Shown here: positions 31,431-35,010 of the stretch, one piece after another
Layout of the letters: each line of letters begins with the position of its first letter
Position numbering within the stretch: the first letter of the stretch is position 1
Virus record (IMG/VR): IMGVR_UViG_3300033075_001920
From: a virus
Lineage: Duplodnaviria; Heunggongvirae; Uroviricota; Caudoviricetes
Reading direction: 5' to 3' (one strand)
DNA: 64,000 bases
Position numbers and translations under genes: made by a program
Notes under the pieces: generated by a model
The model's input: the letters and a program-made list of their open reading frames with translations, nothing else
Told to the model about the DNA's origin: nothing
Database searches by the model: none

Positions 31431-31789
31431 AACAGAAGCAGATTATATTGCAGGTTCAGAACAATATGAGCATTCAGGCTCCCATATCTCTTTTTGGCGG
31501 TATGTTTGACCCAAATGGCAATACAGTTAATACGCACAACCGCTGGGCATGGGATATCAGTGCTCAGACTTACGTAGGACTATCATTGTTCCAGTTGCAA
31601 TATAGAAGAGTAGGGGTAATTCCCTATACCACCATCAGCATGCCTGTACCGGGCAATTTTGCAGATGTAATCCGGATTTTAAATTTACAAGGTCTTGGAA
31701 CGTTTTGGGCTGTAAGTTTGATTCTGCCACCACTGATGATTTATACTATGTCCGATACTCTGCAGTTTAATCAGCTTTCAATAGCATAG
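31427..31789 (+). CDS. hypothetical protein
   Basis: 120-aa ORF, the last gene of the + block. It converges with and overlaps the - strand methyltransferase end by 23 nt. Confidence 0.45.
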   Translation: MKQKQIILQVQNNMSIQAPISLFGGMFDPNGNTVNTHNRWAWDISAQTYVGLSLFQLQYRRVGVIPYTTISMPVPGNFADVIRILNLQGLGTFWAVSLILPPLMIYTMSDTLQFNQLSIA

Positions 31790-33011
31790 CCTCATATTGT
31801 TCGATTGCTTTTGCAATTTGCATAAACACTTGTGGTACAATTGCATTACCGCCTGCCTTTATAGATTGTTCTCTCCACCGTGTAAAGGTTTTTTTTGGTT
31901 TTACGTTGTTTCTTCTTGGGTCTTGATAAACGGCAGTAGGGTCCAATCGGGAGGGAATCCCATCATTTCCATCACAAAAAGGGGAGACAGTTGGCCACTC
32001 GTCCCAGTATGATCCTGCATTACTGCGCAGAGATAATCCTTTTCTGACATGTGTACATGACTCTTTGAGTTTAGCGGTCCTACTCCCTTCCACTCCGATG
32101 CTCGAGGGGTTGGAATTAGCCCATTTTCTTTCAAAACTGTTTTCAAGGCTTTGCCCCCTTGTGCGAAATTTGTGTTTCTGTCCGCCCCCGATGTTGGCGT
32201 CGGAATTAGTCCCTGTATTTGAAGATATTCCAAATGGCTCTCTAAGTATGACATTGCGACTAAATGACCCTTTCTTTCCGCTCTGGTATGGTATCCTTCC
32301 TGTCCGCCAACTCGAGGAGTTGGAATAAGACCGTGCATTATTGTGTCTGTCAGATTCAAACTGTGGCTGTTGCCGTTTGCCGCTTTTCTGCGTCCAGTTT
32401 TTGTTAATTCCGCTTTGGGGTGTGGAGTTTCTTGTGTTGTTACTGTAGGCAATAAACCAGACTCTATATCTCCGGTGGGGTGCTCCGACACCAGCAGCTG
32501 GAAGTACAAACGGGAGAACCTCATATCCTTCGGACTCGAGCTGCTGCGTCTGATCACTGTCTTTGAACGCAGCTCCCAAGTCAGCTTGCACCTCGTCGAA
32601 GACCATCCCGGCATTCCAATTAATAAGCCCGAGAACGTTCTCGCCCACGACCCAACGGGGACGAACCTCTCGAATGACTCTAAGCATCTCTGGCCAGAGG
32701 TGGCGTTCATCCTCTTTTCCTTTTTGTTTTCCTGCGACTGAGTAAGGTTGGCATGGTCATCACGGGAACCCTCCGACGAGAACAATGTCATTTGTCCTCC
32801 AGAGGGTTCCTTTTGTTTTTGAAATTTCTTCATTTAATTTTTGGTAATTGAGAGTATGAATATCGTCATGATGATAAGCATCAGGCCAATAGTATTTTAG
32901 TAGATGTCTGCAAAAAGGATTTATTTCGCATGAGGATAGAACTTCCCAACCTAAGGCAGAAGCCCCAAGTTCAAACCCACCCATTCCGGAAAAAAGGCTA
33001 ATTAATTTCAA
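31767..33011 (-). pseudogene. DNA (cytosine-5) methyltransferase, interrupted by in-frame tandem TGA-TGA inside motif IV
   Basis: Motif I FSGMGGFELG and GGFP, then TGA TGA (32757-32762). The same frame continues PCQPYSVAGKQKG, ENV, GAPHRRYRVWFIAY and GNAIVPQV. A second frame carries GLIPTP repeats and MGFPPDWT. Confidence 0.75.
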
Positions 33012-33014
33012 TAC

Positions 33015-33575
33015 TTATGGATCTAAACGCATTGAATTACAGATTCCGGACTTCACATTAATAAATCCATCCCATTCTAAAGATCCTGATCTGGTTCTGG
33101 CAGACCATCCATAACTACCCTCTTTGGCTATAATGGTAACAAATCCATCTGCATTACAGGCCGGCTCTCCGGAAATAACATATTTGGTAATTGTGCCTAC
33201 ATAGCTGCCATTTACCGATATATCAATAACTTCCCCGAAATTATGGTTCACATAAAACACGCAGGTACCCCTTACGTTTTCTATGTTTACAATTTGGGAA
33301 GCGGAAGAGGAAACATTGTCGATACTTGTAGCTTTTAGATTCACAAGGTAAGAACCATTTTTGCTATACTTATGGGTTGTATGCTTTGATGTGGAACTTG
33401 CGCCATCTCCAAAATCCCAATTGAATTTTTCTCCGTTGGAGGTATTATTGGTAAAGGTAACGCTCCCTTCATCGGTGGGAGAGATAAAGTATGAGAAACC
33501 GGTTTCCGGTGTTACTTTTTTGCAGCCGCTTACGGTTGCAAGCAGGGTAATTAAAATTAATTGTATTATTTTCAT
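33015..33575 (-). CDS. lipoprotein with PKD domain
   Basis: Lipobox signal MKIIQLILITLLATVSGC. FNWDFGDGASSTSKHTTHKYSKNGSYLVNLKA matches the PKD domain core. Confidence 0.7.
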   Translation of the reverse strand: MKIIQLILITLLATVSGCKKVTPETGFSYFISPTDEGSVTFTNNTSNGEKFNWDFGDGASSTSKHTTHKYSKNGSYLVNLKATSIDNVSSSASQIVNIENVRGTCVFYVNHNFGEVIDISVNGSYVGTITKYVISGEPACNADGFVTIIAKEGSYGWSARTRSGSLEWDGFINVKSGICNSMRLDP

Positions 33576-33603: not shown

Positions 33604-34290
33604 TTATTTCTTGTAGAAATACTTTGGAGTAGAATCCGGCACATCCAGCATCTTTGGTTTAATCTTTTTAAGCTTGAAGAAGTCCTTACAAGCTTTTTGA
33701 GCACCCTCCAAAGCCCAATCGTCGATAATAATGATTCCTCCTTTTGAAACAAAGGGATATAGGTTCATTAAAGCATAAAGGGTAGGATCGTAAATATCCA
33801 TATCCAAACGTAGGATAGAAATAGCCCCTATTTTATTAATTGTCTGCGGGAGGGTATGTTGTATCCATCCTTCGACCAATTCAATGTCCAGTGAGCCATA
33901 AAGACCCCAATCGGTTAAATTTTTGATTACCTGCTGGCGGGATACGGAGGTAACACCACTGGATTTCAGAAGTTCCTCTTCAGGTACATTGACATCGTGG
34001 GTGATAGTACCTATACCTGGCTGTTCTTTATCATTCTTACCGGCAAGCTGAATTCCCTGAAAAGAGTCAAAACCCCAGAATTTTCTTCCCGATGGTCCTC
34101 CGGCGTCAAGTACACCGAGCATCATACTGGCAAAGTTTCCTGCTGCAGCCACTCCGCATTCAATAATATCTCCGGGAATGTTTTGCTCAATGATTTCTTT
34201 ACCACACTGGTAGCTGTGCAGCTGAGTTTGTTTGGTTGAATAGACATACTGTCCGATACGGTCCAGTTTTGCCTGAGTATTTATATCCAT
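33604..34290 (-). CDS. TylF/macrocin-O-methyltransferase-like class I SAM methyltransferase
   Basis: IECGVAAAGN (SAM-binding loop) and ISILRLDMDIYDPT...GGIIIIDDW match TylF-family hallmarks by eye. Confidence 0.6.
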   Translation of the reverse strand: MDINTQAKLDRIGQYVYSTKQTQLHSYQCGKEIIEQNIPGDIIECGVAAAGNFASMMLGVLDAGGPSGRKFWGFDSFQGIQLAGKNDKEQPGIGTITHDVNVPEEELLKSSGVTSVSRQQVIKNLTDWGLYGSLDIELVEGWIQHTLPQTINKIGAISILRLDMDIYDPTLYALMNLYPFVSKGGIIIIDDWALEGAQKACKDFFKLKKIKPKMLDVPDSTPKYFYKK

Positions 34291-34383: not shown

Positions 34384-35010
34384 TTAGAATAATTTCAACT
34401 GTTTTTTGTATTGATTGAACCTTTTAACACCAGCATCAAAATAAGTAGTATTTATTTCGCATATATCTAAATCATATCCCATTTCATCGCAGGCAATAGC
34501 AATACTCATTGAACCTCCATGTGTATCTAAAATTTTAGCATTTGCAACACCTGACCCAAATTTATCAAGAAGGTACTTATACAATTTGACCGGTTTTTGT
34601 GTAGGATGGATTTTATCTTCATTTGTCCTTACAGTTGATTGTCTAAATATTTTTGATGGTTTGTCAAACGAAGTCCATGCATATTCTGCTGCGCTAAAAT
34701 TTTCAAAAGGCTGTTCTTTATCCCATATAACAAAACATCTGTTAGGAGGAAGATCGAAGTAATTCCCCCCCCATATAATTTGATTCTTTGAAACCCTAAA
34801 CAATTCGTTAAAATATTCTTCACTTGGCGCGGTATCCCATTCTTGAATATTACCTCTATTTAAAATTCTGTTTTTTAATTTACCGCTCCCTTGAGAAGAG
34901 CTTTTTGGCATTCCATATGGAGGATCGACAATTGCTAATTCATAAATCTTATCTTCTTTTCCTTTCAAGAAATCCATAGCATCGACATTGTAAAATTCAA
35001 TATTGCTCAT
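34384..35010 (-). CDS. DNA methyltransferase, N6-adenine/N4-cytosine (beta class, DPPY)
   Basis: IVDPPYG (motif IV) comes first, then HPTQKPV and LDTHGGSMS (motif I). Confidence 0.8.
   Translation of the reverse strand: MSNIEFYNVDAMDFLKGKEDKIYELAIVDPPYGMPKSSSQGSGKLKNRILNRGNIQEWDTAPSEEYFNELFRVSKNQIIWGGNYFDLPPNRCFVIWDKEQPFENFSAAEYAWTSFDKPSKIFRQSTVRTNEDKIHPTQKPVKLYKYLLDKFGSGVANAKILDTHGGSMSIAIACDEMGYDLDICEINTTYFDAGVKRFNQYKKQLKLF

Follow-up and report, generated by a model that had tools for sequence, protein, structure and literature searches.

The C5-cytosine DNA methyltransferase locus of the phage IMGVR_UViG_3300033075_001920 (Caudoviricetes; the whole analyzed stretch of 64,000 nucleotides (nt) is called the window here) raises the question of how one stretch of DNA can be open in two frames of the same strand that both spell methyltransferase motifs. 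An earlier note, made from the letters alone, had described these overlapping frames and had left three readings: a composite gene needing two frameshifts, genuine dual coding, or two motif classes that are frameshift derivatives of each other. All strings and coordinates of the two frames were borne out on the minus strand, and true dual coding of the locus is demonstrated by comparative evidence: both frames match protein families, both are kept open, synonymous diversity in frame A is suppressed where frame B is conserved, and the ratio of nonsynonymous to synonymous polymorphism (pN/pS) switches between the frames along the gene. Taken as a whole, the locus is quite probably explained best, on comparative grounds, as a nested, two-frame methyltransferase of the M.EcoHK31I type, in which a catalytic polypeptide (alpha, frame A) would be gated and a second polypeptide (beta, frame B) would be read from the same nucleotides. 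The parts to which the following arguments refer are:

32760..33011, minus strand: N-terminal open reading frame (ORF) of alpha in frame A, with TTG start and motif I, ending in ...VLVGGFP followed by TGA; matches PF00145
31767..32756, minus strand: downstream part of alpha in frame A, with motifs IV, VI and VIII, linker, motif X and TAA; matches phrog_363 and is under purifying selection
32010..32444, minus strand: linker of alpha, unconstrained in amino acid sequence but kept stop-free according to pN/pS and the stop-shuffle test; overlaps the LLPTP modules of beta
31901..32833, minus strand: beta ORF in frame B, 310 amino acids (aa); phrog_1008 match and homologues
32444..32698, minus strand: conserved N-domain of beta, dual-coded with alpha motifs VI to VIII, as seen in the alignment of relatives, synonymous diversity and pN/pS
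31928..31993, minus strand: C-terminal motif of beta, QLSPLFVMEMMGFPPDWTLLPF, equivalent to C5-methyltransferase motif IX according to chimera tests and pN/pS

Coding in both frames

Frame A begins with MKLISLFSGMGGFE... at the TTG codon at 33011 and contains motif I as LFSGMGGFE, the S-adenosylmethionine binding motif FxGxG. Its downstream part is open from 32756 to 31767, where it terminates at the TAA codon 31769-31767, and carries PCQPYSVAGK, ENV, GAPHRRYRVWFIAY, YWDEWPTVSPFCDGNDGIPSRLD and FTRWREQSIKAGGNAIVPQV, with motif IV (PCQ) at 32756-32748, motif VI (ENV) at 32642-32634, motif VIII (GAPHRRYRVWFIAY, in which HRRYR represents RxR) at 32486-32445 and motif X (GNAIVPQV) at 31850-31827. 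Beta (31901-32833) lies wholly inside alpha (31767-33011) in the +1 frame relative to alpha and carries GLLPTVTTQE, GLIPTPRVGGQEGY, GLIPTPTSGADRN, GLIPTPRASEWKG and QLSPLFVMEMMGFPPDWT; its N-domain follows the pattern SGQRCLE...WARTFSGLLIG...W.S.RCKLTW...LYFQL...GLLPT. As the earlier note had stated, MGFPPDWT in frame B and DGIPSRLD in frame A are spelled by the same nucleotides, 31963-31940; at the C-terminal motif of beta as a whole frame A reads ...PTVSPFCDGNDGIPSRLD....

The translation of frame A matched PF00145 with an E-value of 3.4e-35 over profile positions 1-208, the match ending at position 208 of 324, as well as TIGR00675 (2.4e-31) and phrog_363 (3e-58). Frame B matched phrog_1008 (E 6.8e-13) and no model in Pfam or NCBIfam. 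Both frames, rather than only one as the earlier note had allowed for, thus give significant family matches. A database search with beta returned 1069 homologous proteins (best E 1.7e-70), and an exhaustive profile search found 18,646 clusters at 50% identity with E<=1e-3, among them 6,872 at E<=1e-10. Nearly all members of this family are unnamed or labelled 'hypothetical protein', and Pfam holds no model for it.

The nested layout was followed in a viral sample of 80 IMG/VR loci and a bacterial sample of 77 genome loci, almost all from Bacteroidota. Among the viral loci, frame A was stop-free across the frame-B match in 74 and a complete methyltransferase ORF contained the frame-B ORF in 73; the third sense frame had a mean of 19.5 stops and was never open. 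In bacteria, 69/77 loci showed the nested layout, with 20.0 stops in the third sense frame. The Bacteroides phages BKO1-TP3 and BS-TP4, a Porphyromonas phage and Paenibacillus phage Shelly each have a methyltransferase that is a single intact ORF free of stops and that contains a homologue of frame B at +1; in Shelly this homologue is annotated as 'g55 internal gene'. The closest relative of the window locus, L085, has the same nested layout, and its gene caller reported frame B only. In L085 and in the Porphyromonas phage phage018a_AFR5B1 (L003), the annotation gives only the nested frame-B ORF as 'hypothetical protein' and leaves the full C5-methyltransferase frame unannotated, which shows that such loci are systematically mis-annotated. 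Three loci from Bacteroides reticulotermitis, B. faecis and an uncultured Bacteroides (L271, L273 and L274) have a canonical GGFPCQP, yet their frame A is stopped twice within the frame-B ORF; possibly alpha is in decay there and beta remains open.

Selection was assessed in a codon alignment of frame A from 70 non-redundant genes and by pN/pS in 136 genes, with the same nucleotides read in each frame. Synonymous diversity of frame A was 0.52 at the N-terminal and 0.49 at the C-terminal end, both outside the overlap, and fell inside it to 0.26 (WVVGENV...LPAC; Mann-Whitney p 7e-10) and 0.13 (W.NFPT...ITFSKW; p 5e-11). At conserved four-fold degenerate frame-A sites, the entropy of the third position was 1.57 and 1.58 bits outside the overlap and 0.65 and 0.29 bits inside. 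Along the gene, pN/pS was distributed as follows:

Motif IV segment: frame A 0.25, frame B 1.55, control frame C 1.69; selection on alpha only
ENV to motif VIII: frame A 0.36, frame B 0.75, control frame C 1.98; selection on both
Linker and LLPTP modules: frame A 1.38, frame B 0.41, control frame C 1.08; selection on beta only
C-terminal overlap: frame A 0.91, frame B 0.36, control frame C 1.41; selection mainly on beta

When synonymous codons of beta were shuffled with the protein fixed, 6.0 frame-A stops per gene were expected and none was observed in 79 genes; for the window itself the expectation was 5.6 with 0 observed, and 0/200 shuffles were equally open. With alpha fixed, 1.9 frame-B stops per gene were expected across motifs IV-VIII, again with none observed. 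The two-frame observation is far beyond chance, and the constraint on both frames is evolutionary evidence that both polypeptides are made.

The same data bear on the possibility that frame B is a non-functional shadow ORF or that the two-frame appearance is an assembly artefact. The region is indeed richer in GC than the rest of the phage (0.489 in 31901-32756 vs 0.389 for the window), as the earlier note had seen, and this by itself lowers the frequency of stops. However, the third frame of the same region contains about 20 stops, frame B has a pN/pS of 0.41 where that of frame A is 1.38, and thousands of homologues come from independent assemblies, isolates and phyla, making this explanation extremely improbable. 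Assembly error in particular was rejected, since layout and insert alike recur in numerous assemblies and isolates of independent origin. The antisense ORFs of 87 and 132 aa that the earlier note mentioned are present in the window as well, and were rejected as genes since no antisense frame is open in relatives (0/136).

A second rival is the proposal of a composite gene, in which one polypeptide would arise by two programmed frameshifts, from A to B after motif VIII and back from B to A after MGFPPDWT near an A8 run, to yield a C5-methyltransferase of the canonical single-chain form. In its favor, chimeras of beta motif IX and alpha motif X, joined at canonical spacing, outscore frame A alone against PF00145, so the idea of an A-B-A composite was not groundless. 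A prophage variant in Paenibacillus larvae genomes (P0254, 10 member sequences) is an actual A-to-B fusion, with frame A motifs I-VIII joined within the linker to frame B; it ends at the beta stop without motif X, carries the annotation DNA (cytosine-5-)-methyltransferase and has probably decayed or been frameshifted. Two frameshifts are nevertheless not needed, as frame A is continuous across the overlap in the window and in 74/80 relatives. The linker is kept stop-free in 79/79 genes although its amino acid sequence is unconstrained, which indicates that alpha is translated through it. Selection on frame B extends upstream into the stretch that must also be read in frame A to supply ENV and RxR, and an upstream frame-B ATG is present in 132/136 genes. 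Translation of beta where the catalytic motifs of alpha must be read, together with reading of alpha through the linker, requires two polypeptides and argues against an A-B-A frameshift product. Separate polypeptides also suffice in the M.EcoHK31I precedent as it is described in the literature. The composite gene therefore appears very unlikely. The run proposed for the return shift, and a second element found only in the window, are:

31889..31896, minus strand: A8 run immediately 3' of the stop of beta; lacks conservation as a shift site
32538..32576, minus strand: window-specific insert of 13 codons; absent from 31 aligned relatives

The A8 run is present at 31896-31889 as the earlier note had reported. 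It lies in a window-specific KPKK stretch, while relatives read GITFSKWRNES... without KPKK, and it was rejected as a shift site because it is not conserved in them. The 13-codon insert sits between motif VI and the EGYEV segment, reads GAAFKDSDQTQQL in frame A and TVIRRSSSSPKDM in frame B, is near-palindromic and stays in frame for both proteins; all 31 aligned relatives lack it.

Candidate starts of beta are ATG 32833, ATG 32790, which lies in the loop of the hairpin described below, and ATG 32710. The conserved Met before ...ATSG.KC was considered as a universal start and rejected, since no more than 100/136 relatives have ATG there. A short third-frame ORF of 18 codons (32708-32763, minus strand) with GTG/ATG within CCGTGATGACCATG... 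ends in a TGA that overlaps this frame-B ATG (32710-32708, Met42 of beta) as ATGA, which is the classical arrangement for stop-start coupling.

Alpha and beta as probable subunits of one enzyme

In the preferred explanation, the locus would encode a two-polypeptide C5-cytosine DNA methyltransferase. Alpha would form the catalytic Rossmann body with motifs I-VIII and X, with an unconstrained spacer in the usual place of the target-recognition domain that stays stop-free so that motif X remains attached. Beta would be translated from its own start; by analogy with M.EcoHK31I, its N-domain may bind alpha, while its LLPTP modules may form the target-recognition part, and alpha and beta would assemble into the active enzyme. 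In the window phage and about 88 other viral genes, alpha would further be gated at the catalytic motif by one or two stops behind a hairpin. That alpha and beta function as a heterodimer is likely by analogy.

The distribution of conserved motifs fits this division. Motifs I, VI (ENV), VIII (RxR) and X (GNAV) of C5-methyltransferases (PF00145) are present in frame A, as is PCQPYS of motif IV, split from GGFP by TGA TGA as in about 88 viral relatives. Frame A does not contain motif IX and a target-recognition domain in the same chain, and motif IX occurs in frame B only. The C-terminus of beta has the consensus QLNP.FV.EMMGFPPDWT.LPF, with MGFPPDWT at canonical spacing ahead of alpha motif X. 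Chimeras of this C-terminus with the alpha tail matched PF00145 positions 273/277-323 in 5/10 diverse genes, with scores up to 27.8 bits (E 2e-6) and three above the gathering score, whereas controls with frame A only matched in 2/10, at about 11 bits and through motif X only. For the window the chimera match was weak (E 0.15), and frame A alone gave none. Judged by these alignments, the conserved C-terminus of beta is motif IX. Since the match needs frame B and pN/pS in this region is 0.36 in frame B vs 0.91 in frame A, DGIPSRLD in frame A is largely an out-of-frame shadow. To this extent the idea that the two motif classes derive from each other by frameshift was correct.

Between the N-domain and motif IX, beta contains a variable number of LLPTP modules, which are a natural candidate for target recognition. 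As the spacer of alpha is unconstrained and beta is long and modular, target recognition probably resides in beta and not in alpha.

The model for this arrangement is M.EcoHK31I, a C5-methyltransferase of E. coli for YGGCCR (Lee, Kam & Shaw 1995, as described in PMC2836561, PMC3404938). According to these descriptions, its beta chain, which carries motif IX, is encoded in another frame within the alpha gene, and neither chain is dispensable. Alpha is described as containing motifs I-VIII, motif X and the target-recognition domain, and the N-terminus of beta as necessary for association with alpha (PMC2836561, PMC3404938). Several points weigh against carrying this model over to the window locus. 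The target-recognition domain of M.EcoHK31I is said to be in alpha, where the variable region of the window protein is unconstrained, and the likeness to M.EcoHK31I is drawn from published descriptions; a tblastn search of plasmid sequences gave no E. coli match. An AlphaFold2 model of beta from a 32-sequence alignment was poor (predicted local distance difference test 53.5, predicted template modelling score 0.30), and the beta profile matched no PDB sequence even at E 10, so that a role of beta in target recognition is suggested only by motif IX and the variable modular middle.

A stop and a hairpin at the catalytic motif

The claim that frame A continues from the N-terminal domain holds with respect to the frame, but two tandem in-frame stops, TGA TGA at 32762-32757, interrupt it between ...VLVGGFP and PCQ.... 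These stops and the hairpin in front of them had been overlooked by the earlier note.

32754..32765, minus strand: candidate recoding site CCG TGA TGA CCA, directly 5' of TGC
32765..32810, minus strand: RNA hairpin, recognized from folding energy, covariation in the family and presence or absence together with the stop

At this site CCG (Pro) occupies 32765-32763 and CCA 32756-54, followed by TGC for the catalytic Cys at 32753-51; the downstream part of frame A offers no start codon ahead of this Cys. A single stop at the same place (GGFP, stop, P or L, CQP) was found in 6 of the first 80 viral loci. In IMG/VR, an unbiased pattern search that left two codons free between GGFP and CQP returned 83 matches, 81 of them methyltransferases. 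In 81/81 the first free codon was a stop (36 TAA, 26 TAG, 19 TGA) and the second was Y-Y-N (CTN 39, CCN 33, TCR 9, TTA 1). With three free codons, the inserts in real methyltransferases were CCG TGA TGA CCA, identical to the window, CCG TGA TGA CCT, CCG TAA TGA CCT (twice), CCG TAA TGA CCC, CCA TAA GGA CCG and CCA TGA TGG TCA; identical or similar tandem-stop inserts occur in L203, L199, L189, L194 and L197. One-codon inserts between GGFP and CQP were absent from real methyltransferases in the pattern search. Altogether, about 88 viral methyltransferase genes carry one or two stops of all three kinds at this spot.

Could alpha then simply be dead, the TGA TGA insert having turned the methyltransferase into a pseudogene in which only beta, or nothing, functions? 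Tandem stops are a classical way to ensure termination, no suppressor tRNA is encoded and no start codon precedes the catalytic Cys. Against this, about 88 diverse viral genes have the insert at the same position, with all three stops; mutation of the stop to a sense codon is never seen, and a covarying hairpin goes with the stop. Across 46 non-redundant genes that bear a stop, frame A is open for about 300 codons downstream of it, varies predominantly at phase 3 and has a pN/pS of 0.29, and Cys, ENV, RxR and GNAIVPQ are conserved to about 90-100%. Such purifying selection means that downstream alpha must be translated. Stop-bearing genes also cluster, with 59/66 nearest neighbours carrying a stop as well, and variants with Leu, Pro or Ser after the stop are mixed within clusters. 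By this pattern the stop is old, maintained and followed by a translated reading frame, and a dead alpha is quite unlikely. Reassignment of TGA or a suppressor tRNA was rejected, since TGA is an ordinary terminator in the window genome (it ends 24/68 long ORFs), no tRNA genes were found there, and relatives use TAA, TAG and TGA.

The hairpin in the window (32810-32765) has a predicted folding energy of -30.4 kcal/mol (z -4.38, 0/200 shuffles). It consists of an outer stem, GGAACCCUCUG / CGGAGGGUUCC, an 8-bp inner stem and an apical loop AUGACA that holds the frame-B ATG 32790-32788. In the family, the hairpin has 10-12 bp; its 3' arm is GGN-GGN-TTC-C, corresponding to the G-G-F-P codons and ending at the first nucleotide of the Pro codon, and its 5' arm encodes G-[T/S]-[L/H/R]-W. 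The 66 nt upstream of the site had a median folding energy of -24.3 kcal/mol (z -4.1) in stop-bearing vs -5.5 kcal/mol (z +0.6) in stop-free genes (p 1.3e-15), with no difference in downstream RNA structure between the two groups. Defined as a stem of >=8 contiguous base pairs closing at the Pro codon, the hairpin occurred in 31/34 genes with a stop and in 0/46 without one (Fisher p 4e-19), and the energy ranges of the two groups did not overlap. Of the cells in an alignment of 28 sequences, 90.1% pair (83.0+-1.1 in shuffles, 0/500; 35-62% in slid controls), and the stem contains 23 double-sided changes vs 8.9+-2.2 in shuffles (0/500). The covarying pairs join Gly third positions to second codon positions of the 5' arm, and the abundance of G.U pairs points to the sense RNA as the strand that folds. 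The hairpin region had no match in Rfam.

How ribosomes might pass the stop is a matter of several candidate mechanisms. The combination of a Pro codon, one or two stops of any kind and a codon compatible with an NGG anticodon directly before Cys is the signature of a stop-hop, and a ribosomal stop-hop is, on sequence criteria, the tentative leading candidate. The ribosome would stall with peptidyl-tRNA(Pro) on CCG and the stop in the A site and hop 9 nt, or 6 nt in single-stop genes, to the Y-Y-N codon adjoining the Cys codon. Landing would restore the canonical GGFP-CQP, and re-zipping of the hairpin behind the ribosome may help, the outcome being little or conditional alpha relative to beta. 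Take-off codon, stop and a matched landing codon beside the resume codon are all present (CCG TGA TGA CCA TGC), and the conserved, covarying 5' hairpin, presumably the stimulator, is exclusive to stop-bearing genes. The fuller proposal of a natural, programmed in-frame stop-hop that is driven by hairpin refolding, lands through G:C or G.U pairs and gates the catalytic subunit against beta is possible, and we put it forward with some reserve. True Pro landing codons make up only about 40%, the rest needing G.U pairs, and the 3' arm of the hairpin lies inside the ribosome at take-off; both speak against a hop. So does the position of a frame-B ATG within the hairpin of many members, as the hairpin could regulate beta initiation instead. 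Stop-hops are moreover known from synthetic constructs, while of natural in-frame cases 'no occurrences are known' (Atkins et al. review, PMC5009743).

Near-cognate readthrough would instead yield low levels of an alpha with 2-3 extra residues before the catalytic Cys and thereby attenuate methyltransferase expression. The base after the last stop is mostly C, a weak termination context, and all three stops are used. Pro followed by a stop is a poor termination context as well. However, the tandem stops in the window and at least 5 other contigs argue against readthrough, which would be extremely inefficient there. The residue before Cys would be Leu, Pro or Ser and never Ala or Thr, which fits Y-Y-N base-pairing better than protein chemistry. 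Known stimulators of readthrough lie 3' of the stop, whereas the structure in this family is 5' and nothing was seen 3'. We regard readthrough as unlikely.

A third option is that stop and hairpin form a coupling or switching device for beta, either by reinitiation at the loop ATG, once ribosomes that complete the N-terminal ORF of alpha have opened the hairpin, or by a +1 shift at the CCN-stop to an alphaN-beta fusion. The window and many relatives have a frame-B ATG in the apical loop and GGAGG in the stem, and GGAGGG 3 nt 5' of the P-site codon, followed by UGA, resembles the prfB site. Fusions of the alpha N-terminus with beta are the default ORF in a Firmicutes-type lineage (L292, L294) and in P0017. 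Yet such a device leaves the making of the conserved downstream alpha unexplained. A P-site codon able to re-pair at +1 (CCC_U, CUU_U) is lacking, the Pro codon being CCG in the window and most relatives; the GGNGGN bases covary with the 5' arm rather than conserving a Shine-Dalgarno (SD) sequence, and several cassette genes have no ATG in the loop. This alternative is thus doubtful.

The fusions in that lineage come from two independent metagenomes (L292:1501-2765 and L294:638-1900, in the contigs JGI 3300002855 and Logan SRR33870483). In both, the alpha N-terminus with motif I shares its frame with all of beta, and the -1 frame holds an intact motif IV-X part. Where the two meet, about 10 codons 5' of motif IV, lies an (AG)5-6 dinucleotide run that is a candidate for a +/-2 frameshift or a slipped-strand phase switch. 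That alpha is broken by two unrelated devices at one and the same point suggests deliberate gating of the production of the catalytic subunit.

Genomic context, significance and known systems

The window phage is a novel phage; GenBank contains no phage near-identical to it. Upstream of the C5-methyltransferase lie a homologue of TylF-type macrocin-O-methyltransferases (33604-34290, minus strand; PF05711, 8e-34) and an N6/N4 DNA methylase (34384-35010, minus strand; PF01555), giving three methyltransferases in a row. A PKD-domain lipoprotein-like ORF (33015-33575) lies among them and a DUF5131 protein also adjoins.

With a same-strand overlap of about 930 nt that is preserved across Bacteroidota, Firmicutes and the phages of both, the locus is among the longest and best-supported dual-coding regions in prokaryotic viruses, and it is a natural test bed for the co-evolution of two proteins on one sequence. 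Because gene callers report alpha or beta and rarely both, thousands of methyltransferase loci are mis-annotated, and predictions of specificity from alpha alone will miss the probable recognition subunit. Literature searches found no paper on a nested gene or an in-frame stop in phage C5-methyltransferases, and the stop-hairpin recoding candidate is previously undescribed. Both the cassette and the (AG)n switch, which are unrelated yet sit in one place, suggest that making of the catalytic subunit is gated deliberately, and they supply a candidate for natural stop-hopping that lends itself to direct tests. If true, the stop-hop, occurring in about 88 phage genes, would be a first example from nature of a recoding class otherwise seen in synthetic constructs only, and it would rebuild the catalytic PC dipeptide.

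For the hop, the nearest parallels are T4 gene 60 and the synthetic stop-hops (PMC5009743), which likewise have a take-off codon followed by a stop, synonymous or near-matched codons flanking the stop, by which more than one codon stands for a single amino acid, a 5' mRNA structure and, in T4, a phage gene kept functional despite a short insert. In the window family, the gap is only 3-6 nt, landing often relies on G.U pairs only and the hairpin abuts the take-off codon. The +1 frameshift of prfB (RF2) resembles the window site in the SD-like GGAGGG 3 nt upstream of the P-site codon, the following UGA and the open and functional +1 frame, here that of beta; it differs in that the P-site codon of the window family is mostly CCG, the SD-like bases are not conserved as such and all three stops are used.

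For the enzyme, M.EcoHK31I is by analogy the closest precedent. As far as the published descriptions go, the two share a beta nested entirely in the alpha gene, an alpha with motifs I-VIII plus motif X, and a beta with motif IX. The beta of the window family is long (210-450 aa), has repeated LLPTP modules, has its start upstream of motif IV and shares nucleotides with the catalytic motifs; the family is moreover huge and phage-borne, and part of it adds the stop-hairpin cassette in motif IV. With this family, M.EcoHK31I is no longer a curiosity but the founding member of a large class. M.AquI is a natural heterodimeric C5-methyltransferase that is split in the variable region into consecutive subunits, with motifs I-VIII followed by IX-X (PMC3404938), and is thus a two-subunit enzyme as well, but its subunits are not nested and motif X is on the small one. 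Same-strand, out-of-frame nested coding with constraint on both frames, possibly coupled through termination near an internal start, is familiar from phiX174 and the MS2 lysis gene; in the window locus, in contrast, the two products would be parts of one enzyme, and about 930 nt of overlap are conserved across bacterial phyla and phages.

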